Below are positions 1-50,255 of a stretch of DNA of 64,000 bases, in pieces. The DNA is from Clostridia bacterium (lineage in GTDB: Bacteria; Bacillota; Clostridia; Christensenellales; Aristaeellaceae): the NCBI GenBank assembly GCA_045658005.1, contig JAZOUD010000143.1, positions 1,130 through 65,129 of the forward strand. The letters run 5' to 3'. A model generated the notes under the pieces. It worked only from the letters and a program-made list of their open reading frames with translations, ran no database searches and was not told the origin of the DNA. Within the stretch, counting starts at the first letter, position 1. Each line of letters starts with the position of its first letter. A program made the translations under genes and the position numbers.

Positions 1-1424
1 GCGCGGAGGCGCTGGTGCCCGGCGCGGGGCGGGACGCCATCGAGCCGCTGCTGGCGGACGCCGGCTTGTTCGTCAGCGAGGTGGACGTCCAGGCGGACCG
101 GGTGGTGCTGGAGGGCAGCGTCGCCTGCCAGGCCGTCTACCGGCAGGGCGAGGAGAGCGCGCTGCGGGCGCTGACGGCCCAGGCTGCGCTGAACCACGTG
201 CTGGACATGCCGGGCGTCCAGCCGGGCATGCTCTGCCGCGCCAGGGGCGAGGTCAACCACGTGGACGCCCGCTATGAAAACGGGCACATGGTGTTCCAGG
301 TGACCTGTGACCTGAACGTACAGGTGCTCAGCCTGTCGCCGGTAGAGGTCATCAGCGCCGTGGAGGGCGCGCAGGGCCTGCAAACTGTATTCAAACCGAT
401 TCGCTCGGTCAAGCTGGCCGCCGAAGCCAGCGAAATGGCGCTGCTGAAGGACGCGGTGACGCTGCCCACCGCCCTGGACGCCCGCACGGCGCTGATGGAC
501 TGGGCCGCAGTGGAGATCGAGGACGTGTCTGCAGACCTGGGCGGCGTGCGGGTGAAGGGCCGGGCGATGGTGGAGACGCTGGTGGCCAGCGGCGTGGCGG
601 GAAGGCCGGGGGTCGTGGTGCGCTACCCGCTGGCGCTGGACCAGCTGGTGGAGCTGCCGGAGTGGCTGGCGGGGGACGTGTCCGCCGAGGTGGACGTGCG
701 CAGCATCCGCAGCCGTGTGGACGCCGCGGAGGGGGACGGGGACATGCTTTTGACCTGTGAGATCGAGGCGCGGGTGCGGGTGCTGGCCAACGCCACGGAC
801 GAGGTGGAGGCCCTTGCGGACGTCTACGCGACCCAGGGCATGAGCGTCGATGCCGAGGACGAGGACGTGCATTTTTGCCGCGCGGTGGATCGCGCGAGGG
901 TGTGCGAGCTGGTGCGGGGCACGGTGCTGATCGGGGAAAACGCCCCCGGCGTCGGCACGGTCATCGCCACCCAGGTGCATCCCTCCATCGGCGAGTGGCG
1001 CAATGAAAACGGCCAGGGCAGGATCGAGGGCGTGGCCGAGACCCGGGTGCTTTACATGCCGGGCGGGTCGGAGCTCCCGGCCTCCGCCGAGGCGGAGCTG
1101 CCCTTCAGCCTGACCGTGCCCCAGATGCTGAACGACGAATCGATGATCGAGATGCAGGTGCTCTCCGCCGAGGCCAACGCGCTGATGAGCGACCGGCTGG
1201 AGATGAAGCTGCAGCTCTCCGTCACCTGCCAGACCCGTCAGCGCGCCGAGGTTGAGATCGTGACGGCGCTGACCGAAGGCGCGCCCGTGCAGCGCCGTCC
1301 CGGCATCGTGGTCAGCTGGCCGCTGCCCGGAGAGACCGCCTGGGACATCGGCAAGCGCTACGGCATCCCCGCCGGGGGCGTGGGCGAGGTCGAAGCGGGC
1401 AAGGCGGTGGTGCTGAAGGTGTGA
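1..1424 (+). CDS. SPOCS/DUF3794-repeat protein with a short LysM-like C-terminal tail (SafA-like spore-coat assembly family). The 5' end is probably outside the window.
   Basis: ORF 15..1424 has repeated ...VDV..D.V.L.G.. modules and the tail WDIGKRYGIP. The frame stays open back to base 3, so the GTG at 15 may not be the start. Confidence 0.6.
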   Translation, partial: AEALVPGAGRDAIEPLLADAGLFVSEVDVQADRVVLEGSVACQAVYRQGEESALRALTAQAALNHVLDMPGVQPGMLCRARGEVNHVDARYENGHMVFQVTCDLNVQVLSLSPVEVISAVEGAQGLQTVFKPIRSVKLAAEASEMALLKDAVTLPTALDARTALMDWAAVEIEDVSADLGGVRVKGRAMVETLVASGVAGRPGVVVRYPLALDQLVELPEWLAGDVSAEVDVRSIRSRVDAAEGDGDMLLTCEIEARVRVLANATDEVEALADVYATQGMSVDAEDEDVHFCRAVDRARVCELVRGTVLIGENAPGVGTVIATQVHPSIGEWRNENGQGRIEGVAETRVLYMPGGSELPASAEAELPFSLTVPQMLNDESMIEMQVLSAEANALMSDRLEMKLQLSVTCQTRQRAEVEIVTALTEGAPVQRRPGIVVSWPLPGETAWDIGKRYGIPAGGVGEVEAGKAVVLKV

Positions 1425-1507
1425 GGCGACGGGCAAGACGCGGCATAATTATTTCAAATTGCGTTCGATTGCTTTTTTCCGGGATTGGTGTTATAATGTA
1501 CACATAT

Positions 1508-1521
1508 CGAACGTTTGTTCT
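1508..1521. promoter_or_regulatory. Candidate LexA (Cheo/SOS) box, CGAACGTTTGTTCT
   Basis: It matches the Firmicute consensus CGAAC-N4-GTTC(G/T). It lies just downstream of a TATAAT-like hexamer (about 1492) and about 105 nt upstream of the SSB-like CDS. Confidence 0.5.
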
Positions 1522-1626
1522 ATATGAGACATCAGGGGGCCGGAACGGTTTTTTTGCCCCGGCGCGGCATGACGGTCCGTTCACCGGCATATATTATGAG
1601 TAACACACAATAACCGGAGGGATACG

Positions 1627-2313
1627 ATGGAAAATCCAAACAACAGAATCATAGCCGTTGGGCGGCTGGACGGCGAACTGGAACTGAGCCACGAGGTGAT
1701 GAACGAGCCCTTCTATACCGGCACGCTGCTGGTAAAGCGCCTTTCCGGCGCGGTGGACCGCCTGCCGGTCACCATTCCGGGCAAGCTGATGGGGTTGCTG
1801 CCGGAAGAAAACAGCCAGCTGCTGGTAACCGGCCAGGTGCGCTCCTACAACAAGGTCGTCGACGGCGCCGGGCGGCTGATGGTGACGCTGTTCGTGCAGA
1901 GCCTGGCGCTGTCGCCGGACAACGACACGCTGAACCGGGTCGCGCTGACCGGGGCGCTGTGCAAGCCGCCGATCTATCGCTCCACGCCATTTGGCCGGGA
2001 GATCTGCGACATGATGCTGGCGGTGAACCGCGCCTTTGGCAAGAGCGACTACATTCCCTGTATCGCCTGGGGCCGAAACGCCCAGTACGCCTCCCGCTTC
2101 AGCGTGGGCGACCGGGTGCGCCTGACGGGGCGGCTGCAATCCAGGGAGTATCAAAAGCTGCTGGAGAACGGGGAATACCTGCTCAGGAACGCCTATGAGG
2201 TCTCCTGCTTTACGCTGGAGGCCGCCGAGGCCGAAGCCTCCGCACTGCCGGCTTGCGCGCCGCCGGAGGTTCGCTACGCCTTTGACGCCGGGACTCGAAA
2301 GCGCCTGAGTTGA
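1627..2313 (+). CDS. OB-fold single-stranded-DNA-binding-like protein with an Ala/Pro-rich C-terminal tail
   Basis: 228-aa ORF with RBS GGAGGG upstream. The motifs ...RLSG..D.LPV... and ...YRSTPFGREICDMMLAVNR...DYIPCIAWGRNA... are typical of clostridial SSB-like proteins. Confidence 0.6.
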   Translation: MENPNNRIIAVGRLDGELELSHEVMNEPFYTGTLLVKRLSGAVDRLPVTIPGKLMGLLPEENSQLLVTGQVRSYNKVVDGAGRLMVTLFVQSLALSPDNDTLNRVALTGALCKPPIYRSTPFGREICDMMLAVNRAFGKSDYIPCIAWGRNAQYASRFSVGDRVRLTGRLQSREYQKLLENGEYLLRNAYEVSCFTLEAAEAEASALPACAPPEVRYAFDAGTRKRLS

Positions 2314-2430
2314 CGCGACAGCATGACAGGACCCTTCGGGGTCCTGCTTTTTTACATGGCGGCGGTTGCCGCACAACGCGAGAGGCGGTACAATGGGGAA
2401 GAGCATCAATCCAAAGGGGGAAGCCTGAAA

Positions 2431-3891
2431 ATGTCCTGCACTACAATACTTGTCGGCAAAAACGCCTCAAACGACTGCTCCACGATGATCGCCCGGACCG
2501 ACGACGGGCACTTTGACGTGAAGAAGCTGATCGTCGTGAACCCGGAAAAGCAGCCGAGGAAATACAGGAGCGTCATTTCCCACGTGGAGATCGACCTGCC
2601 CGACGATCCCATGCGCTACACCGCCTGCCCCAGCGTCGATAAGAAGGATGGCATCTGGGCCGCCACGGGCATCAACGCCGCCAACGTGGGCATGACCGCC
2701 ACCGAGACAATCACCTCCAATCCCAGGGTGCTGGCCGCGGACCCACTGGTGAAGTACAAAGAAGCGAAGGGCAGGGAAAAGGCGGCGCCCGGCGGCATCG
2801 GCGAGGAGGACATCGTCGTGCTGGTGCTGCCCTATATCCACAGCGCCAGGGAGGGCGTGGAGCGCCTGGGCGCGCTGCTGGAGCGCTACGGCACCTACGA
2901 ATCCAACGGCATCGCCTTCAACGATAAGGATGAGATATGGTGGCTTGAGACCATCGGCGGGCACCACTGGATGGCCCGAAAGGTACCCGACGACGTCTGT
3001 GTGATCAACCCGAACCAGTTCGGCATGGACGCCTTCGACCTGGAGGACGCCTTCGGGCCGCGCAAGGCGCATCTGTGTTCCGCCGATCTGCGGGAATTCA
3101 TCGCGGAAAACCACCTCGACCTGAACCAGGGCGGCGCGTTCAATCCCAGGGACGTGTTCGGTTCCCACAACTACCGGGATCGCATCTACAACACGCCCCG
3201 GGCCTGGTACATGGGCCGGTGCCTGACGCCCTTTTCCCATCGTTGGGACGGGGAAAGCGCCGATTACATGCCGGAGAGCGACAACATCCCCTGGGCGCTG
3301 GTGCCCGACCGGAAGGTGACGGCGGAGGATGTGAAGACGATACTGTCCTCCCATTACCAGGGCACGCCCTACAATCCCTATTCCAGCCAGGATACCGGCA
3401 AGCGGGGCATGTACCGCTCCATCGGCATCAACCGCACCGGCGTCACCGCCATCTGCCAGATCAGAAACGGCGTCCCCGAGGCCGTCCGGGGCATCGAGTG
3501 GATCAGCTTCGGCTCCACCACCTTCGACGCGATGCTGCCGGTCTACGCCAATGTGGCGCGCATGCCCAAGTACCTGAGCGACGTGCGCCTGGACGTCTCC
3601 ACCGAAAACTTCTACTGGGGCAGCTGCCTGATCGGCGCGCTGGCGGACCACGACTACGGCGCCTGCATCCAGCACGTCGAGCGCTACCAGGACGCCGTGG
3701 CCACGGAGGGCCGCCGCCTGATCCTGGAATACGACCGGCGCATGACCCAGACCGGCGACTTCAGCCTTGCAGAAGAGGCCAACGCGGCGCTGGCGGACAT
3801 GGCGAAGGCGCAGACGATCGCCACGCTGAACAAGGTGCTGCTGGAATCGAGCCAGCGCATGAAGAACGGCTACGACCGGGCGGACAACTGA
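2431..3891 (+). CDS. C69-family dipeptidase (N-terminal Cys nucleophile)
   Basis: The internal start gives MSCTTILVGK..., the characteristic M-x-C-T N-terminus. RBS AAGGGGGA lies at 2414-2421. The ORF-track start at 2323 adds 36 unlikely residues. Confidence 0.85.
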   Translation: MSCTTILVGKNASNDCSTMIARTDDGHFDVKKLIVVNPEKQPRKYRSVISHVEIDLPDDPMRYTACPSVDKKDGIWAATGINAANVGMTATETITSNPRVLAADPLVKYKEAKGREKAAPGGIGEEDIVVLVLPYIHSAREGVERLGALLERYGTYESNGIAFNDKDEIWWLETIGGHHWMARKVPDDVCVINPNQFGMDAFDLEDAFGPRKAHLCSADLREFIAENHLDLNQGGAFNPRDVFGSHNYRDRIYNTPRAWYMGRCLTPFSHRWDGESADYMPESDNIPWALVPDRKVTAEDVKTILSSHYQGTPYNPYSSQDTGKRGMYRSIGINRTGVTAICQIRNGVPEAVRGIEWISFGSTTFDAMLPVYANVARMPKYLSDVRLDVSTENFYWGSCLIGALADHDYGACIQHVERYQDAVATEGRRLILEYDRRMTQTGDFSLAEEANAALADMAKAQTIATLNKVLLESSQRMKNGYDRADN

Positions 3892-3901
3892 TTGCGAAGA
3901 A

Positions 3902-3945
3902 GAGGGGACGGCAAGGCCAGCCGTCCCCTCCGGATTTCAATTTGT
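3902..3945 (+). terminator. Rho-independent terminator after the dipeptidase gene
   Basis: A GAGGGGACGG / CCGTCCCCTC stem (3902-3911 / 3921-3930) is followed by a T-rich tract. Confidence 0.65.
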
Positions 3946-3964
3946 AATTCAGAAAAGAATATGC

Positions 3965-3992
3965 TTGAAAAACGACAAAAATGTGATATACT
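3965..3992 (+). promoter_or_regulatory. Sigma-A-type promoter (TTGAAA, 16 nt, extended TGaTATACT)
   Basis: The -35 hexamer is at 3965-3970 and the -10 at 3987-3992, with a TG at 3984-3985. It lies upstream of the small membrane ORF and the pfkB-ktr genes. Confidence 0.5.
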
Positions 3993-4063
3993 GGTAGTGA
4001 GGCGCTCCATAACCGTGCGCGCGCCAATATCCGCACTGTCTTCAGGCGGCACAGGGGGCCCGC

Positions 4064-4267
4064 ATGACGCTGACGCAGAAAATCATATTGATCGCCCTGC
4101 TGGTGATTGGCGGGCTGGCCATGATCGTGGGCTTTACGCTGATGCACTACATCGGCGGCTTCCTGCGCACCGTGGAGGAGGAAAAGGCGCAGGAGGACGA
4201 GACCCCGCGCCAAAGCGATGGCGGTACGCCGCCGCACAGTGACGGCAAGACAAATACCAACATGTGA
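4064..4267 (+). CDS. Small membrane protein (one TM helix, acidic/Pro-rich tail)
   Basis: 67-aa ORF whose sequence IILIALLVIGGLAMIVGFTLM is a clear TM segment. It sits between the promoter and pfkB. No family was recognised. Confidence 0.45.
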   Translation: MTLTQKIILIALLVIGGLAMIVGFTLMHYIGGFLRTVEEEKAQEDETPRQSDGGTPPHSDGKTNTNM

Positions 4268-4281
4268 ATTAGGAGAAAACT

Positions 4282-5211
4282 ATGATTACAGCTGTTTCCC
4301 TGAATCCCAGCATTGATCGCACGCTGACGGTCGACAGGTTTACGCCCGGGGGGCTGAACCGGGTCGTGGACAAGCGGGACGTGGCGGCCGGAAAGGGCAT
4401 CAACGTGGCGCTGACCGTCTCCGAGCTGGGCCTGGATTCCGAGTGCATCGGCTTCATGTACAAGGACGGCGCTTCCCAGTTTGAAAAGCGACTGATGCTC
4501 AATTCCACGCCCTACGACTTCATATGGTGCGAGGGCAGCGTCCGAACGAACATCAAGGTGTTCAACCGCGCCGACAACACCATCACGGAGCTGAACGAAT
4601 CCGGCATGAGCGTGGCGGAGGACGACCTCAACAGGATGGTCGAGATGGTGGTCAGGCACGCCGAAAACAGCGACTACCTGATCCTGTCCGGGTCGCTGCC
4701 TCCGGGATGTCCCCAGGACTATTACCGCACGCTGATCCGCTCGGTGGACGGCCTGGGCTGCCGCTGCGTACTGGACGCCGACAGCGACCGGCTCAAGTAC
4801 GGGCTGGAGGCGAAGCCCTTCATGATCAAGCCCAATCGCTATGAGATGGAGACGATGATCGGCCGTCCCCTGGACGGCATCGCCGATATCCGGGAAGCCG
4901 CGCTGCGCTACATCGACATGGGCGTGCAAATCGTCGCCGTGTCCCTGGGCGCCGGCGGCGCGCTCATCACCGACGGGAGCCAGACCCTCTTCGCGCCGCG
5001 CATGAACATCGAGGTCAAGGGCACCGTGGGCGCCGGCGACGCGATGGTCGCCGGCCTGGTGGCAGGCTTCATGGCGGACTGGGAGCTTGAGCAGTGCTTC
5101 CGCATGGGCGTAGCCTGCGCCAGCACCCGCTGCATCACCGAGGGCTACAAGACCATCGACAAGACCGTCTACAGGGCATTTTTGGATATGGTAAAGGTCG
5201 AAAGGGTGTAA
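4282..5211 (+). CDS. PfkB-family sugar kinase, 1-phosphofructokinase-like
   Basis: The N-terminus is MITAVSLNPSIDRTLTV... and the C-terminal anion-hole motif is GAGDAMVAG. Length is 309 aa. Confidence 0.8.
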   Translation: MITAVSLNPSIDRTLTVDRFTPGGLNRVVDKRDVAAGKGINVALTVSELGLDSECIGFMYKDGASQFEKRLMLNSTPYDFIWCEGSVRTNIKVFNRADNTITELNESGMSVAEDDLNRMVEMVVRHAENSDYLILSGSLPPGCPQDYYRTLIRSVDGLGCRCVLDADSDRLKYGLEAKPFMIKPNRYEMETMIGRPLDGIADIREAALRYIDMGVQIVAVSLGAGGALITDGSQTLFAPRMNIEVKGTVGAGDAMVAGLVAGFMADWELEQCFRMGVACASTRCITEGYKTIDKTVYRAFLDMVKVERV

Positions 5212-9777: not shown

Positions 9778-9806
9778 TTGATTTTTACCGGCCCGGGGTA
9801 TATAAT
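9778..9806 (+). promoter_or_regulatory. Sigma-A-type promoter (TTGATT, 17 nt, TATAAT)
   Basis: The hexamers lie at 9778-9783 and 9801-9806, 58 nt upstream of the amidohydrolase start. Confidence 0.55.
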
Positions 9807-9864
9807 GGAGCCGATGGGCGGGGTGCAGCCGCATTTCGCCCGGAATAAGCGGGGGTGACAAGAC

Positions 9865-10773
9865 ATGTTTGGCGACTGTCACATTCACATGGTCCTGGAC
9901 GGCGTCTATTACAGGGACGCCATCGACGCCCACAGGGGGCACGTGCGCGACGACCTGATCCGCGAGACGCTCGCCGACTATGCCAGAGCCGGTATACGCT
10001 ACCTGCGTGACGGCGGCGACGCCTTTGGCGTCTGCCAGCGGGCCAGGGCGCTGGCGCCGGAGTATGGGATCGAGTACCGGATCCCCTGCTTCCCGATCTG
10101 CCTGAAGGGACGCTACGGCAGCTTTATCGGCCGGACGTTCGAGACGATGGCCGATTATCGCGCCCTTGTGGCCGAGGTGGACAGGGCCGGGGGCGACTTC
10201 ATCAAGATCATGATCTCCGGCCTGATGGACTTTGACCGCTACGGCGTCGTCACCAGCACCCCGCTGTCGGCCCGGCAGATCCGGGAGATGATCGACATCG
10301 CCCACGGCGAGGGCTTTTCGGTGATGGCCCATGCCAACGGCGCAGAGACGATCCGCGCGGCCCTGGAGGCGGGCGTGGACAGCGTCGAGCACGGCGCCTA
10401 TATGGACGCGGACACCGTTAGCGCCATGGCCCACAGCGGCGCGGTGTGGGTGCCCACCCTTTCCACCGTGGGCAACCTGATCGGTAACGGCAGGTATCCC
10501 GACGCGGTGCTCCGGAGCATACTGGACGGGCAGCTTCTCAATATCGCGGAATGCGCCCGGCAGGGGGGCTGCATCGCCCTGGGCAGCGACGCGGGCGCCT
10601 ATTGCGTGTTCCACGCCCGGGCCGTGGAGGACGAATACGCATGGCTCGAGCGCGCGCTGGGCGCTGAGACCGAAGCCGTAATCACCGCGGGCGAAGCCGG
10701 GATTCGCCGCCGGTTCAGGCGCGGCGGTCTGGCATCTTTTACAGAAGGGCGGGAAACGCATGACGCCGACTGA
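9865..10773 (+). CDS. Metal-dependent amidohydrolase-family protein
   Basis: It has an N-terminal DCHIHM (HxH) motif, later HANG and EHG motifs, and a SDAG aspartate. Length is 302 aa. Confidence 0.75.
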   Translation: MFGDCHIHMVLDGVYYRDAIDAHRGHVRDDLIRETLADYARAGIRYLRDGGDAFGVCQRARALAPEYGIEYRIPCFPICLKGRYGSFIGRTFETMADYRALVAEVDRAGGDFIKIMISGLMDFDRYGVVTSTPLSARQIREMIDIAHGEGFSVMAHANGAETIRAALEAGVDSVEHGAYMDADTVSAMAHSGAVWVPTLSTVGNLIGNGRYPDAVLRSILDGQLLNIAECARQGGCIALGSDAGAYCVFHARAVEDEYAWLERALGAETEAVITAGEAGIRRRFRRGGLASFTEGRETHDAD

Positions 10774-11452
10774 AATCCGCGAAGCGCTGTACCAGCTTCG
10801 GGACGAAGAATACCGCGCCTTTCAGGTCAAGCTGATCCCCAATATCGCGCCCGATACGATGATCGGCGTTCGAACGCCCGCATTGCGCAGCCTGGCGAAG
10901 CAGCTGTACAGGGCAGGGGATTACGCCGCCTTTCTGGCCGAGCTTCCCCACCGCTGCTTTGACGAGAACCAGCTGCACGCGTTCATACTCTCCGAGATGC
11001 GGGACTTTGAGACGTGCATTGAAGAAACCTGTCGGTTCCTTCCCTATGTGGACAACTGGGCGACCTGCGACCAGCTTTCGCCGAAGGCCTTCAAAAAGCA
11101 CCGCCAACAGCTGCCGGAATACATAAGCGTCTGGCTCGCTTCCGGGCATACCTACACCGTCCGCTTTGCCATCGGCATGCTGATGGCCCACTTTCTGGAT
11201 GAGGCTTTTGACCCGGAATATCTGCGCACGGTCTCGCAGGTGCGCTCAGAGGAATACTACGTCCGTATGATGGTGGCCTGGTACTTTGCCACGGCCCTTG
11301 CCAAGCAGTACGACGCGGCGCTGCCCTATATCGAGGAACGCAGGCTGCACCCCTGGACCCATAACAAGGCCATCCAGAAGGGCGTCGAGAGCAATCGCAT
11401 CCCCGATGAACGCAAGGCATACCTGAAGACCCTGAGGGCGCGATCCACCTGA
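10760..11452 (+). CDS. DNA alkylation repair protein (AlkD-like HEAT-repeat family)
   Basis: The sequence ...YRAFQVKLIPNI....IGVRTPALRSLAK... and the length (230 aa) are typical of the family. It overlaps the upstream gene by 14 nt. Confidence 0.7.
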   Translation: MTPTEIREALYQLRDEEYRAFQVKLIPNIAPDTMIGVRTPALRSLAKQLYRAGDYAAFLAELPHRCFDENQLHAFILSEMRDFETCIEETCRFLPYVDNWATCDQLSPKAFKKHRQQLPEYISVWLASGHTYTVRFAIGMLMAHFLDEAFDPEYLRTVSQVRSEEYYVRMMVAWYFATALAKQYDAALPYIEERRLHPWTHNKAIQKGVESNRIPDERKAYLKTLRARST

Positions 11453-19774: not shown

Positions 19775-20254
19775 ATGAAGATGGATTACATACATGAGCT
19801 GAGGAAGATCACCGGCCCGCGCAAGCTGATACTGAACTGCGCCGGCGCTGTGATCGTCCGGGATGACCGCATATTGCTCCAGCGGCGAACGGACAACGGG
19901 AAGTGGGGCCTGATCGGCGGGCTGCTGGAGATGAACGAGACCTACGAGGAAGCCGCGCTCCGGGAGATTCGGGAGGAGACCGGCCTGGAGGTGGCGCTGG
20001 ACAGCTTTCTCGGCATCTTCCACAATCACGATATGGTCTGGGGCAACGGCGACGCGGCGCATGTGATAGCCGCCATGTACACCGCCCGTATCGTCAGCGG
20101 GGAGCCCAGGATCGACGAGGAATCTTATGAGCTGAGGTTCTTCTCCAGGGAGGAGATGCCGGAGCTGTTCGCGGAGGATCAGATCGCGGCCCTGGACGCC
20201 TATTTCAGAGGCGTGCGCCATCCGCTGTTGCAGGAGAACCGGATGGTGAACTGA
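19775..20254 (+). CDS. NUDIX hydrolase
   Basis: The Nudix box is GGLLEMNETYEEAALREIREETGL. Length is 159 aa. Confidence 0.85.
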   Translation: MKMDYIHELRKITGPRKLILNCAGAVIVRDDRILLQRRTDNGKWGLIGGLLEMNETYEEAALREIREETGLEVALDSFLGIFHNHDMVWGNGDAAHVIAAMYTARIVSGEPRIDEESYELRFFSREEMPELFAEDQIAALDAYFRGVRHPLLQENRMVN

Positions 20255-20282
20255 AATCTGTGGGTCCCCGCGCCTTGTCCAC

Positions 20283-21733
20283 GTGAATACATTCATCCTG
20301 ACGGAGGGCTTTAAAAACGCGCCCTGGTTCTTCCTGGACTCCCACAACATCGTGCCACGCCCGGGATTGGAGGGGACCGCCTTCCGGCTGGAGGCGGGGG
20401 AGGCCTTTTGCGTGGATATCGCGGTTTTCGACTACCCCGCGGCGGATGCCCGGGGGATCAACGGCGCCGTCCGCTGGGTGTACCGTCGCTTCCACGAACC
20501 GCCCCGGGAGGGCCTGCCCATACAGACTGCGGTGGCGGACATCGCGACTGCGGTGTCCCGCGACGCATGGCTCGAGGACAGCGACGCCTATGCCGGGTTC
20601 GTGTTCGACTGGCAGTACGACCACGAGGTGCGCCGCCTGCCCTCCATCACCTGGACCAACGGCCTGGCCGTGGCCGTGCCGATGCTCCAGGCCGCGCACC
20701 GCCTGGGACGGGAGGACATACGCGCCCAGGCGCTGCGCTGCATCGACCATATCGTGGATACCTCGATCAATCCGAGGAACGGCCTGCCCTTCACCGCGGA
20801 GGTCGACGGGACCTGGTGCAACCGGGGCTGGTGGTACGACAGGCAGCCCGTTCCCGGCCACGCCGCCTACCTGGTCGGCCAGGCGCTGTACTACATACTG
20901 AAGGCGTATGCCCTTGAAAGGGGCGCGGCGCAGACCACGGCAAATGGCTGGCCTATGTCGAAGGCGCGCTTGAAAAGGTGGAGCGCACCCTCAACAGCGA
21001 CGGGGAGTATCCCTATGTCTTTTCCGAGGACAGCGGCGCGGGCCTGTGCTACGATTCCATGTCGGGCGCGTGGTGCCTGGCTGCGGCGGCGTACCACGCG
21101 GCGCTGACCGGCGACCGGCTACAGCTTCCCAAGTGGCTGGAAAGCGAAGCCCACTATCACTGCGCGTACATCGTGCCCATGGTCTGCTACGGCGGCCCGC
21201 TGGACATCGACAAGCAGGTGGACTCCGAGGGGGTGCTGGCCTATATACGGGCGGTGCGCTGGCTCCATGAATTGACCGGAGACGAAAAGCTGCTTTTGCA
21301 CATGAGCGACGCGCTGGAATATGAATTCACCTTCAAGTTCTGCTACAACTCGCCCATCAAGGTGCCGCCGCTGAGCCGGGTGGGGTGGAGCAGCTGCGGC
21401 GGCAGCATCACCTCCGTCACCAATCCCCACATCCATCCCATGTCCTCCACCGTCGCGGATGCGCTCGCGTACTTTGTGCAGAAGACCGGCGATGAGTACG
21501 TGAACAGCCGCTTATTGGATACCGTGAACTGGAGCCGCCAGGTGTCCAGCCGCTACGACGGGGAATACGACTACGGCAGGCGGGGCTGGATGAGCGAGCG
21601 CTTCTGCCACTGCGAGGGCCTGCTGACGGAGCGCTACCCCGACGGCACGCCGGCCAGCACCTGGTTTGCGCTGATGCCCTGGGCCTGCGGCAGCATACTG
21701 GAGGCGCTGGCCGGCGAGAATTGGGATGACTGA
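20283..21733 (+). pseudogene. Single about-480-aa gene of unrecognised family, split by a frameshift near 20917-20945
   Basis: ORFs 20283..21107 and 20978..21733 overlap. The second frame is open from 20918 and reads ...KGRGADHGKWLAYVEGALEKVERT..., which continues the first ORF smoothly (...YILKAYALE). Confidence 0.6.
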
Positions 21734-46596: not shown

Positions 46597-47544
46597 TTAT
46601 GCGCTCACCGTCTCGTCCTTCAGCGCCGCCTTCATCACGGCGGGCCAGATGGCGATGATGAACAGTATGCGGATGACGTTGTTGGCGAAGCAGCCCCAGT
46701 GCGTGCCAAGCATCGCCTCCATCGGCCCGCCAAGGATCTGTATGATACCGTAGGTTATCACGCCGCCGACCAGCGCCGCAATGACATTCTGCCGGGAGCA
46801 GGTGGGCCTGAAGCGGACCCAGGTTTTCTCGATGAACCGGCCCGCGCACAGCGCCATGAACGCGCCGATGTCGCCGTAGCCGTCCTTCATCATCTTCTTC
46901 GGGTCCACCAGAAGCTTCCCGTCCACGTAGTCCATCGGATAGGACTTGACGGAGATGTAGAACAGCGCGGCGATTCCCAGAATCACGCCCAGGGCCAGGA
47001 ACAGGTTTTCCTTCTCCGGGTTCTTACGGAGGTAGCCAAACAGCTTCCTCATGCCCCAGATCACCAGCACGCCCTCGGTCATGCCGACGGCCACATCCTG
47101 GGGCGTGTGGACGCCCAGGTAGTTGCGGGAAAAGCCTGTGATGAGCGCCAGCAGTATGCACAGCACCGAAACCCAGCGCATCTTTTTCCAGGCGCTGACC
47201 GCCATGGAGCCGTAGATGGACGTGGCCATGGTGGTGTGGCCGCTGGGGAAGGAGTAGCCTGTCGCGGTGCTTATGGCATCCCCGGCGGGAAGTATACGGC
47301 TGTCCCGGATCCACGGGCGATAGACGCAGGCGGTGAGCTTGACCACGGCGTTTAATGCGATGGTGGCGGTACAGGAGGCCATCGTATAGAGCCCGCTCTC
47401 CTTGTCCACGCACCAGTAGATCATCGCAGGAATGATGACCAGGAAGGTGACCGCGAAAAGGGAGATCATCTCCATGAATGGCGTCAGCGCGTCATTGATG
47501 CTGTTTCTGAAGTTCTGCAAGAAAAGCAGGTATTGTATGTCCAT
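46597..47544 (-). CDS. PAP2-family membrane phosphatase
   Basis: Motifs SFPSGHT and SRNYLGVHTPQDV (PAP2 C2/C3) lie within a polytopic protein. Confidence 0.85.
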   Translation of the reverse strand: MDIQYLLFLQNFRNSINDALTPFMEMISLFAVTFLVIIPAMIYWCVDKESGLYTMASCTATIALNAVVKLTACVYRPWIRDSRILPAGDAISTATGYSFPSGHTTMATSIYGSMAVSAWKKMRWVSVLCILLALITGFSRNYLGVHTPQDVAVGMTEGVLVIWGMRKLFGYLRKNPEKENLFLALGVILGIAALFYISVKSYPMDYVDGKLLVDPKKMMKDGYGDIGAFMALCAGRFIEKTWVRFRPTCSRQNVIAALVGGVITYGIIQILGGPMEAMLGTHWGCFANNVIRILFIIAIWPAVMKAALKDETVSA

Positions 47545-47786
47545 GTGTCTTCTCCTCCTGTCACTGTGGTTGCTATGGGGTTCCCGCAGCCAGATCGCTG
47601 TCCTGACGATATGATTCGCATTTCTGAAATCACGTCAACCAATAATGCCTACACGGAAGCCGCTATAATGGGAAACGAGTCCTGGTATTTCCTGTGTCTG
47701 TCATTATAGTTTGGATTTGCCTGCCTGTCAACAGCTTTTAGCATTGATTATGCTCCATGGTACGCACATTTATTGTTTAAATTGTA

Positions 47787-47815
47787 TTTACATTTAACGA
47801 CTATTATAGTATAAT
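47787..47815 (+). promoter_or_regulatory. Strong sigma-A-type promoter (TTTACA, 17 nt, TATAAT) in an AT-rich island
   Basis: The hexamers lie at 47787-92 and 47810-15, about 100 nt upstream of the GG-leader/SH3 CDS. Confidence 0.55.
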
Positions 47816-47914
47816 AATATGGTATAGCAGAGTCAACAGCAACGCGAAGGCATTGCTTGGTAGAGCGCGATGGCCGAGGCTCAATGTGCACCGCATAACA
47901 AGGAGGAATACACA

Positions 47915-48217
47915 ATGAATGATTTCTTTGAATCGTCTGTCAGGGAACTGAACCTGGACGAGATGGAGCTGGTTAACGGCGGCAAGAAGCGCCCTTTTGT
48001 GCGCTCACTGGCTAAGGATGTCAACGTTCGATCGGGCCCCGGTACGGAATATCCCGTGGTTGCCCAGCTGGGCTACCTGGACGAGGTGGCGGTCATCAGC
48101 AAGAAGATCGTGAAGAACGGTAAATACTATTGGGCGAAGGTCACCGTCGCCGTCAGCCAGTCGAAGCAAGTGGAAGGATGGGTTTGCTCCAAGTATTGTG
48201 AAGGCTGCTGGAACTGA
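47915..48217 (+). CDS. Double-glycine-leader protein with SH3b domain and Cys-rich C-terminus
   Basis: The ATG at 47915 follows RBS AAGGAGGA. The leader is MNDFFESSVRELNLDEMELVNGG. The core contains VNVRSGPGTEYPVVAQLGYLDEV...WAKV...GWV (SH3_3 pattern) and ends CSKYCEGCWN. Confidence 0.7.
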   Translation: MNDFFESSVRELNLDEMELVNGGKKRPFVRSLAKDVNVRSGPGTEYPVVAQLGYLDEVAVISKKIVKNGKYYWAKVTVAVSQSKQVEGWVCSKYCEGCWN

Positions 48218-48326
48218 TACAGAAAGCCCTGTCAGCCATTATGGAAAAGGTCGTCCTGTAACAAGATATAACGAGTATATGCACACCGGCAACAGAGCGA
48301 CACGCATGCGAAAGGAAGGAATATAA

Positions 48327-50255
48327 ATGGCAGAGATCACAGAGCGCAGCGCCGTCTTTACCGACTACGACAGCTACCTTTTCCACCAGGGAACGAACTA
48401 TGAGGTCTACCGAAAGCTGGGCGCCCACCCGGACATGGAGGAGGGCGTGAAGGGCACCCGGTTCAACGTCTGGGCGCCGAACGCCCAGTATGTTTCCGTC
48501 ATCACCGCGAAGACCGGCTGGGAGGACGAGAAGTGGATGCACCGCTGCGCGGGCGACGGCGGCGTGTGGGAATGCTTCCTGCCCGACGTTGGCCCCGGCG
48601 ACGCTTACCGCTACGTCATCACCGGCCAGGACGGCGTGAAGCGCTACAAGTCCGACCCCTACGGCTTCTGGTATGAAAAGCGCCCCCAGAGCGCGTCCAT
48701 CGTCTGCGCGCTGGATACCTTCGTCTGGGACGACGACATCCACCAGGCCCAGCGGGACAACACCAAGGTCGTGGAGCGCCCCATGTCCATCTACGAGGTG
48801 CACCTGGGCAGCTGGAAGAAGGGCTTCCAGGGCGACTGGGATGAAGACGGCTTCTTGAACTATCGACAGCTGGCGGACGACCTGACCCAGTATATGACCT
48901 ACATGGGCTTTACCCACGTGGAGCTGATGGGCATCTGCGAGCATCCCTTTGACCTGTCCTGGGGCTACCAGGTGACGGGCTACTATGCCCCCACGTCCCG
49001 CTACGGCACGCCGGACGATTTCCGCTATTTCGTGAACGCCATGCACAAGGCGGGCATCGGCGTGATCCTGGACTGGGTGCCCGCCCACTTCCCGAAGGAC
49101 GCCTTCGCCATGGGCTGGTTCGACGGCACGCCGCTCTATGAGAACAGCGACCCGCTGCGCCGGGAGTTCCCGGTCTGGGGCACGCTGGCCTTCGACCACG
49201 GCAAGCCGGAGGTGCGGAATTTCCTGATCGCCAACGCCATCTACTGGATCAGGGAGTTCCACATCGACGCCCTGCGGGTGGACGCCGTGGCTTCGATGCT
49301 GTACAACGACTATGATCGCAGCGAGTGGCGGCCCAATGTGTTCGGCGGCCGCATGAACCTGGAGAGCATGGACTTCATGCGCCAGCTGAACTACGAGGTC
49401 TGCGGCCAGACCACCGGCTTTTTGATCGCGGAGGATTCCTCCGCCGAGTGGGGCATCACCGAGGACGTGACCCACGGAGGCCTGGGCTTCACCTTCAAGT
49501 GGAACATGGGCTGGATGAACGACACCATCCGCTACATGAACCTCGATCCGGTCTATCGCAAGTGGCACCACGGCAACCTGACCCACATCGCCGACTACGC
49601 CTTCACGGAGAACTACATACTGGTGCTCAGCCACGACGAGGTGGTGTACGGCAAGGGCTCCATGGTGAACAAGGCGCCGGGCAGCGAGGCCGACAAGATG
49701 GGCGAGGTCAAGACCCTCTACACCTGGCAGTTCACCTTCCCCGGAAAGAAGCTGCTGTTCATGGGCCAGGAGTTCGCGATGAGCCGGGAGTGGAACGTGA
49801 AGGAGAGCATCGACTGGCACCTGGCGGACGACTTCGTCCACCGGGACGTGATGCAGTGCGTCAACAACCTGTTGCACGTCTACAAGAGCCATCCCTGCCT
49901 GTACATGGACAGCAAGAACCCCACCACCTTCGAATGGGTCAACCGGGGCGACGCTGACCGCAACATCGTGGCCTACTACCGCCGCAACCCCTGGAACTAC
50001 GACGGCGCGGTGCTGGTGGTGTGCAACTTCTCCCCGATGTCCTATCACGACTACACCGTGGGCGTGCCGATGGAGGGCTATTACAACCGCATATTTTCCA
50101 CCTACGACAGCCTCCCCGGCCAGGGCAACCCCGCCGAGATCGGCGGCATACCGCCGCTGACCGCCCAGTGGCACGACTGCGACGGTTACAGCCACATGCT
50201 GACCTACAGCCTGCGGCCCTTTGAATCCGTGATCATCGAGTTCCCGACGAAATAA
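48327..50255 (+). CDS. glgB: 1,4-alpha-glucan branching enzyme
   Basis: 642 aa with the motifs GFTHVELMGI, DWVPAHF, GFRVDAV-like IDALRVDAVASM and FLIAEDS. Confidence 0.9.
   Translation: MAEITERSAVFTDYDSYLFHQGTNYEVYRKLGAHPDMEEGVKGTRFNVWAPNAQYVSVITAKTGWEDEKWMHRCAGDGGVWECFLPDVGPGDAYRYVITGQDGVKRYKSDPYGFWYEKRPQSASIVCALDTFVWDDDIHQAQRDNTKVVERPMSIYEVHLGSWKKGFQGDWDEDGFLNYRQLADDLTQYMTYMGFTHVELMGICEHPFDLSWGYQVTGYYAPTSRYGTPDDFRYFVNAMHKAGIGVILDWVPAHFPKDAFAMGWFDGTPLYENSDPLRREFPVWGTLAFDHGKPEVRNFLIANAIYWIREFHIDALRVDAVASMLYNDYDRSEWRPNVFGGRMNLESMDFMRQLNYEVCGQTTGFLIAEDSSAEWGITEDVTHGGLGFTFKWNMGWMNDTIRYMNLDPVYRKWHHGNLTHIADYAFTENYILVLSHDEVVYGKGSMVNKAPGSEADKMGEVKTLYTWQFTFPGKKLLFMGQEFAMSREWNVKESIDWHLADDFVHRDVMQCVNNLLHVYKSHPCLYMDSKNPTTFEWVNRGDADRNIVAYYRRNPWNYDGAVLVVCNFSPMSYHDYTVGVPMEGYYNRIFSTYDSLPGQGNPAEIGGIPPLTAQWHDCDGYSHMLTYSLRPFESVIIEFPTK

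Follow-up and report, generated by a model that had tools for sequence, protein, structure and literature searches.

A 64-kb stretch of contig JAZOUD010000143.1 from a Clostridia bacterium (positions 1,130 to 65,129; referred to here as the window) carries a small gene whose 100-residue product joins a double-glycine (GG) leader to a single bacterial SH3 (SH3b) domain. The gene is probably an orphaned cargo gene of an ATP-binding cassette (ABC) transporter with its own peptidase domain (a PCAT), the product of which would be cut after G23 and released as a cationic, wall-binding SH3b domain. Since its relatives in uncultured gut Clostridia adjoin a peptidase-ABC exporter, the window gene looks like stray cargo of such a system. 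Four lines of evidence carry this reading: the leader/SH3b anatomy of the precursor, its conservation under purifying selection, the exporter linkage of relatives and an intermediate locus with a decayed exporter.

The precursor and its leader

The coding sequence of the GG-leader SH3b precursor (47915-48217, plus strand, 303 nt) begins with an ATG at 47915-47917, encodes 100 amino acids and closes with a stop codon that ends at 48217. The precursor consists of MNDFFESSVRELNLDEMELVNGG (leader) followed by KKRPFVRSLAKDVNVRSGPGTEYPVVAQLGYLDEVAVISKKIVKNGKYYWAKVTVAVSQSKQVEGWVCSKYCEGCWN (mature part). A ribosome-binding site, AAGGAGG (47900-47906, plus strand), was read directly 8 nt upstream of the ATG, and AAGGAGG or CAGGAGG is present at the equivalent position in all orthologous loci. 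Among 5.8 billion proteins searched, 51 homologue clusters were retrieved, nearly all with products of 100-109 residues; the 100-residue open reading frame is a real gene. A 115-residue reading from 47870 was rejected: it is without a ribosome-binding site and is not common to the homologues. No record of the exact sequence of the 100-residue window protein was found.

Residues 1-23 (47915-47983, plus strand) constitute an acidic double-glycine leader with an isoelectric point of 4.05. Positions -1 and -2 are occupied by G23 and G22, position -4 by V20, -7 by M17, -8 by E16, -12 by L12 and -15 by V9, precisely as the first-pass annotation of the window had assigned them. These residues match the PCAT leader consensus L(-12)xxxE(-8)L(-7)xxxxG(-2)G(-1), in which -4 is the specificity residue, taken from the PCAT1-CtA structure (PMC6959990). 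In an NCBIfam scan the leader gave a weak match to a lantibiotic GG-leader family and nothing stronger, so that no curated family covers the window protein.

Based on a clean alignment of 37 full-length homologues, E11, L12, G22 and G23 are invariant, and conservation reaches 90% or more at E18, V20, K24, K25 and P27 as well as in the greater part of the SH3 core. K24, directly after the GG, is also invariant across the three GG-SH3 subfamilies compared. The start codons of all homologues lie 20-28 residues before the GG; homologues lacking the GG or using a downstream start, which would have spoken against a leader, were not encountered. Codon comparison of 11 loci (proportion of synonymous differences, pS, about 0.5) gave ratios of nonsynonymous to synonymous substitution (dN/dS) of about 0.17 (core) and 0.31 (leader); over all comparisons the core ranged from 0.13 to 0.17 and the leader from 0.27 to 0.31, and positions -13 to -1 had a value of 0.20 among seven lineages with an orphan gene (pS 0.5). 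On these comparisons the leader is under purifying selection in the homologues, and the ratio of about 0.20 in the orphan lineages indicates that it is translated and maintained even without an adjacent exporter.

Cleavage after the GG, as predicted from the leader, would yield a mature product of 77 residues (24-100; 47984-48214, plus strand) which starts with KKRPF and has a calculated mass of 8.6 kDa, an isoelectric point of 9.5 and a net charge of +7. GG-leader precursors typically combine an acidic leader with a basic product.

The SH3b core

Pfam SH3_3 was matched by residues 35-94 (48017-48196, plus strand) with 38.1 bits and an E-value of 1.7e-9, the gathering cut-off being 27. The AlphaFold2 model built on the family alignment had a mean predicted local distance difference test (pLDDT) score of 83; residues 31-100 were modelled as an all-beta structure with scores of 88-96, and the leader scored low (53-61) except for a short helix at residues 16-19. 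PCAT leaders form a docking helix in the equivalent region. The top Foldseek matches among PDB and viral structures were SH3b modules of wall hydrolases and endolysins, with probabilities of approximately 1.0 and modest E-values (0.003-0.1), and included YrvJ, Clostridium perfringens SH3 domains, Ly7917, lysostaphin/ALE-1 and many endolysins. A sequence search of the PDB matched the SH3b structures 2krs and 8b2g. The SH3_3 assignment, first made from the residue pattern of the core, was thus borne out by hidden Markov model profile, model and fold comparison, the profiling and structure prediction having been proposed as checks; as modelled, the core is an SH3b fold. By analogy with other members of the domain family, it probably binds peptidoglycan or another part of the cell wall.

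Exporter-linked relatives

Orthologues 70-75% identical to the window protein head an exporter cluster in three other lineages, on JGI contigs (loci L008-L010), in the rumen metagenome-assembled genome (MAG) RUG103 (L016) and in locus L096. In this cluster the family gene is followed by genes for a 101-105-residue GG protein, a 92-94-residue GG-SH3_3 protein, a 143-residue protein resembling the N-terminal part of HlyD, a 728-residue C39-ABC protein, a 729-residue ABC partner, a 164-residue protein and a response regulator of 270 residues with a winged-helix-like C-terminus. The C39-ABC protein passes the cut-off of the NCBIfam equivalog TIGR03796 (898 vs 853.3) and its partner that of TIGR03797 (725 vs 709.4), both models of the NHLP-type bacteriocin exporter. 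The 143-residue accessory protein is similar to the N-terminal part of TIGR03794, an HlyD-like model of 421 positions, with a score of 34 bits vs a cut-off of 156.

The cargo of the 104-residue type has no Pfam domain. Profile-profile alignment placed it with SH3 families at 96.5% probability, so that all three cargo types appear to be SH3-like. A KNFV..VSVPKGTYLVMQ type is distinguished among GG genes for products of 97-105 residues. The exporter loci L101 and L105 hold cargo of the 104-residue type only, which indicates that cargo genes are variably dispersed. Close orthologues of the exporter (72-87% identity) abound in the same types of metagenome. Together with the orphan contexts, these arrangements support a shared exporter which serves cargo genes that may be adjacent to it or dispersed, as established for pneumococcal GG peptides (PMC7018657).

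A decayed exporter and the route to orphan status

Locus L103 documents how family genes turn orphan. It contains an intact paralogous exporter cluster at 30-4866, on the opposite strand, and about 5 kb away a family gene whose product is 75% identical to that of the window. After this gene, a 31-residue open reading frame (9792-9887) preserves an N-terminal piece of the accessory protein, and a 285-residue open reading frame (9961-10818) joins PCAT residues ~55-237 to the final 50 residues of the second ABC protein. The latter covers positions 38-131 only of the C39 profile, the segment with the catalytic cysteine being gone. As read from these fusions, the remnants are the deletion scar of an exporter that formerly lay 3' of the family gene. 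These remnants are followed in L103 by genes for DUF3592, a 220-residue protein and DUF819, the same genes that neighbour a fully orphan family gene in L011-L014. The latter loci also hold a PAP2 gene, which in L011 lies three genes from the orphan.

Promoter and genomic neighbourhood of the window gene

A sigma-70-type promoter, TTTACA-17-TATAAT (47787-47815, plus strand; -35 element at 47787-47792, -10 element at 47810-47815), precedes the gene and agrees with the consensus at 11 of 12 positions. The stretch has about 40% G+C vs about 60% for the genome. The first-pass description of a consensus promoter in an AT-rich island, a strong ribosome-binding site and a 100-residue open reading frame therefore stands. 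Scanning 900 nt revealed four promoter-like sites where 1.3 were expected; the -35 and -10 elements of the window promoter are kept in the syntenic MAG locus L015. Based on the promoter and start positions, the 5' untranslated leader (47816-47899, plus strand) is about 85-100 nt long. No credible Rfam match was obtained for the leader RNA when 47500-48400 was searched at E<=1, the sole match being a chance one to a snoRNA downstream.

The neighbours of the gene were confirmed to be a PAP2 phosphatase gene and glgB, with no recognisable immunity gene adjoining it, again as described at first pass. The PAP2 gene (46597-47544, minus strand) is divergent to the SH3 gene and encodes a PAP2-family membrane phosphatase with weak similarity to undecaprenyl-diphosphatases; its own sigma-70 promoter (47703-47731, minus strand) matches the consensus at 12 of 12 positions. 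In L015 the glgB and PAP2 products are 97% and 84% identical to those of the window, and the SH3-glgB order is kept. The divergent pairing with PAP2 is also kept in L095 (PAP2 47% and SH3 74% identical), and may reflect functional linkage or plain synteny. The contexts of family genes in further lineages differ again, and pairwise comparison of neighbours across the orphan contexts revealed no conserved partner or immunity gene. The 110-nt spacer between the SH3 gene and glgB (48218-48326) was found to contain no terminator-like structure, so that read-through into glgB is possible.

A promoter repeat in the related loci

In exporter-linked and several unlinked relatives a direct repeat, TGTGAY-N5-TGTGAY, is located 10-11 nt upstream of the -10 box, where it replaces the -35 element. 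Exact copies of the repeat were counted 31 times over 320 kb of loci related to the family, in every case 45-99 nt upstream of a start codon, and not once over 1.22 Mb of unrelated loci. Among the sites are those at 640-656 and 1129-1145 in L001, 8426-8442 in L004, 8965-8981 and 9383-9399 in L008, 9877-9893 and 10303-10319 in L016, 1127, 2865 and 3580 in L100, 9081 and 17497 (minus strand) in L101, 5039 (minus strand) and 5547 in L103, and on the minus strand of L017 and L097. Besides the cargo genes, the repeat precedes genes for a ~750-residue PG_binding_1 protein, for proteins of 207, 409-430 and 246 residues, and for a 140-residue Cys-rich lipoprotein (TGTGAC in L001). Its distribution suggests that it marks a candidate wall-associated regulon, plausibly driven by the winged-helix response regulator of the cluster.

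The C-terminal cysteine tail

The precursor ends with CSKYCEGCWN (48185-48214, plus strand), and C91, C95 and C98 are, as had been stated, its sole cysteines. In the AlphaFold2 model the tail adds a beta-strand beyond the final strand of the SH3 domain; strands were placed at residues 85-91 and 95-99, the second of which carries C95 and C98. The CxxxCxxC triad did not hold up as a family feature, being only partly conserved among the 37 sequences. C98 is conserved in more than 90% and W99 in at least 90%, while residue 91 is mostly Cys and in some members Ser, and residue 95 alternates between Cys and Ala. Most members retain C98 together with at least one of C91 and C95, and a disulfide or metal site involving C98 is possible. 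Members with Ser91 keep C95, and those with Ala95 keep C91. Position 94 alternates between Tyr and His, and position 100 between Asn and His. The Cys tail is absent from the GG-SH3 paralogue subfamilies.

Distribution of the family and related proteins

The family belongs to uncultured Clostridia of the ruminant gut, and almost all homologues were found in metagenomes or MAGs labelled Clostridia. The Cys-tail family is narrow, amounting to about one cluster at 50% identity in a profile search of 1.84 billion representatives, a search dominated by multi-repeat SH3 proteins, which limits what it says of family breadth. GG-SH3 relatives of 88-96 residues without the tail outnumber it. In a scan of GTDB genomes 77 of the 80 loci encoded ordinary long SH3_3 proteins, and only L015-L017 held family members.

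Four GG-leader SH3_3 genes without a Cys tail (products of 88-94 residues, 42-62% mutually identical) were identified at 1214-3516 of L100, arranged as two adjacent pairs with two minus-strand genes between them and a repeat promoter before each pair. An ABC protein at the end of this contig is without a C39 domain. The closest non-GG relatives of the 94-residue GG-SH3 subfamily carry a Sec signal and SH3_3 repeats in tandem, two or three per protein, and come from samples of the same kinds; examples are encoded at 19918-20664 (minus strand) of L101 and include the proteins P0367, P0395, P0397, P0436 and P0441. This similarity suggests that ordinary secreted wall-binding proteins gave rise to the GG-leader mini-proteins, each from a single repeat.

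Several other proteins were observed in or near the family. In the 110-residue metagenomic protein P0048 a PG_binding_1 segment comes after the first ~57 family residues, probably through a frameshift or an assembly join, since in L097 a spacer of 15 nt separates the family gene from a PG_binding_1 gene behind it. A PG_binding_1 protein of ~730-750 residues with a weak N-terminal SH3_3 match and a protein of ~410-430 residues recur beside family genes or exporter clusters (L097 10160-12340 and 12439-13692; L101 16203-19825, minus strand; L103 5663-9248; L017 10335-12416), and their C-terminal domain of ~180 residues also occurs in a secreted protein of 207 residues (L097 9005-9628, minus strand). 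Proteins of 140 residues whose N-terminus looks like that of a signal peptide or lipoprotein, which contain several cysteines and match no Pfam family, are encoded at 702-1124 of L001 and 4473-4898 of L100. The two copies share 32-33% identity (E 5e-17) and adjoin GG-SH3 genes in two unrelated contexts; this family could be a partner or immunity candidate.

Interpretation and alternatives

For the window protein, the following sequence of events is proposed. An ABC exporter, by analogy with the relatives an NHLP-type pair of TIGR03796 and TIGR03797, would be encoded at another place in the genome, and the leader would dock on its C39 peptidase domain. The leader would be cut after G23, and the cationic mature domain with its KKRPF start would cross the membrane unfolded, fold outside the cell to an SH3b module and bind peptidoglycan. 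The ancestors of the gene would have headed an exporter operon, the gene now being alone between PAP2 and glgB with a near-consensus sigma-70 promoter of its own. From the relatives and the domain we infer that this organism cleaves and exports the protein, its binding to the wall and any role, be it in competition, wall decoration or signalling.

Several observations weigh against this scheme. A tblastn search with a full PCAT found neither a C39 domain nor an exporter membrane domain in the 64-kb window, that is, over 47 kb upstream and 16 kb downstream of the gene, which agrees with the earlier statement that the window holds no PCAT; it returned no more than generic similarity of ABC ATPase domains at importer genes near 27.6, 39.4 and 40.2 kb. 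The TGTGAY repeat does not occur in the window, even with one mismatch allowed, and since the promoter of the window gene is without it, nothing points to regulation in common with an exporter. PCAT cargo is believed to cross the membrane in an unfolded state (PMC6959990), and a domain that folds well may not be exported efficiently. Strong conservation across species and stable synteny would moreover be unusual for an arms-race bacteriocin.

The last point bears on one alternative, in which the mature SH3b protein would be a PCAT-exported, bacteriocin-like antagonist acting non-catalytically on the wall of competitors, for example by blocking wall remodelling. The class-II-bacteriocin-type leader, the cationic product and exporters that match NHLP 'bacteriocin' equivalogs point this way, as do the diversified paralogue arrays (three cargo genes in L008 and L016, four in L100, at 42-62% identity) and possible immunity genes nearby, small membrane or lipoprotein genes such as those for a 195-residue protein in L008 and the 140-residue family of L001 and L100. 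However, no recognisable immunity gene lies beside the window gene and none is consistently found beside its relatives, the core is a globular beta domain rather than an amphipathic or hydrophobic peptide, the genes co-regulated with the relatives encode wall-binding proteins and not toxins, and the low dN/dS of the core (0.13-0.17) goes with a stable chromosomal position; an antagonist is accordingly considered unlikely. Somewhat better placed, if still on the doubtful side, is a product directed at the producer itself, as an envelope factor or signal within an activator-controlled wall regulon that would decorate the own wall or be sensed by the response regulator. Strong conservation and stable synteny suggest such a role; the repeat is shared by GG-SH3 cargo genes and by PG_binding_1 and other wall-associated genes, and the exporter clusters hold a winged-helix-like response regulator, but the window gene has a constitutive-type promoter without the repeat, none of the clusters examined revealed a sensor kinase and the co-regulated proteins are all of unassigned function.

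The missing exporter within 47 kb upstream and 16 kb downstream could also mean that the leader is a relic, the exporter being lost and the protein cytoplasmic or non-functional, and both the uncoupling of the promoter from the regulon of the relatives and the exporter decay beside the family gene of L103 would fit. This is improbable in view of the dN/dS of 0.20 at positions -13 to -1 among orphan lineages, the intact GG, L-12, V-4 and K+1, and the strong promoter and ribosome-binding site; in addition, exporter orthologues (72-87% identity) are numerous in metagenomes of the same kinds, and in L103 an intact exporter remains 5 kb from the decayed one. Least probable is a precursor of a peptide that is made on the ribosome and modified after translation (RiPP), the C-terminal cysteines of which would be modified (thioether, sactionine) before GG cleavage. 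The weak leader matches to lantibiotic families and the Cys-rich tail recall such precursors, and the exporter type was reportedly first described by Haft et al. in 2010 with RiPP-like NHLP/Nif11 precursors. Against this, the 60-residue core is confidently folded, the Cys pattern varies and paralogue subfamilies are without cysteines, and the leader is short with no NHLP/Nif11 domain. No modification enzyme was found beside the window gene, in a window not fully annotated for such enzymes, or in the contexts of ~10 relatives, and the RiPP reading was rejected because the enzymes were not found in any context examined.

The orphaned-cargo reading is therefore preferred. A broader proposal, put forward tentatively and with less confidence, is that folded SH3b mini-proteins form an unrecognised class of cargo for bacteriocin-type PCATs in uncultured Clostridia of gut and rumen. 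The class would have three subfamilies, with and without a Cys tail, would belong to an activator-controlled, repeat-marked envelope regulon and would act on peptidoglycan with no catalytic domain, as a non-lytic wall antagonist or a wall-bound signal, the window gene being a dispersed member with a constitutive-type promoter.

Significance and comparison with known systems

Short pheromones, bacteriocins and RiPPs are the cargo for which PCAT exporters are known. A cargo consisting wholly of a wall-binding SH3b domain would, if true, widen the known uses of this route and would hint at unexplored wall-directed interactions among ruminant-gut Clostridia. The precursor, the C39 domain, the 8.6-kDa product and the candidate operator would make up a compact, testable system. 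The series from linked gene through decayed exporter to orphan shows clearly how 'orphan' GG-leader genes can originate and should help to annotate GG-leader open reading frames that are otherwise unexplained. Both the secretion mode (GG leader and C39-ABC) and the SH3b domain are known; a single SH3b domain as the whole cargo appears to be undescribed. No description of a GG-leader protein with SH3b cargo was found in the literature searched or in the curated family libraries, so the earlier suggestion of a new cargo class for GG-dependent secretion is a reasonable one.

A close counterpart of the precursor is CtA, the substrate of PCAT1 of Clostridium thermocellum, which likewise has a leader of ~23 residues with L(-12), E(-8), hydrophobic residues at -7 and -4 and the GG (PMC6959990). 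Both are clostridial and both cargos are small proteins, of 66 residues in CtA (PMC6959990) and 77 residues here. They differ in that the CtA cargo is flexible and unstructured with no assigned domain, whereas the window cargo is an SH3b domain, and in that the window gene is not linked to any exporter. In the NHLP/Nif11 system (TIGR03796, TIGR03797, TIGR03794) the likeness lies in the exporter, the orthologue-linked ABC proteins passing both equivalog cut-offs. Precursors of that system have a long leader domain, whereas those described here have a short, classical leader and no modification enzymes, and the accessory protein is short as well (143 residues vs the 421 positions of the TIGR03794 model). 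The window protein, with its leader of 23 residues, gave no NHLP/Nif11 precursor match in the NCBIfam scan at E<=10. It also departs from a class II bacteriocin, having no recognisable immunity gene beside it and a core which is cationic (isoelectric point 9.5) but a globular SH3b domain.

Precedents exist for cargo genes distant from their exporter. Unlinked GG peptides share a PCAT in Streptococcus pneumoniae, where ComAB, BlpAB and RtgAB are the exporters (PMC7018657), although these cargos are short peptides (pheromones and bacteriocins) and not folded domains. MAM of Faecalibacterium prausnitzii is likewise a small gut-clostridial protein with a conserved Gly-Gly at positions 20-21, adjacent to a PCAT in some strains only (PMC8836110); with CtA it sets a precedent for cargo as large as that of the window. 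No sequence or domain relationship between MAM and the window protein was seen, and it was not returned by the family searches; its export is likewise deduced. Finally, the core shares its family and fold with the SH3b wall-targeting domains of lysostaphin/ALE-1, phage endolysins and NlpC/P60 or amidase autolysins. In those enzymes the SH3b domain is appended to a catalytic domain and exported via Sec or holins, whereas in the window protein a single SH3b domain, preceded by a GG leader and extended by an extra Cys-containing C-terminal strand, would make up the whole mature product.

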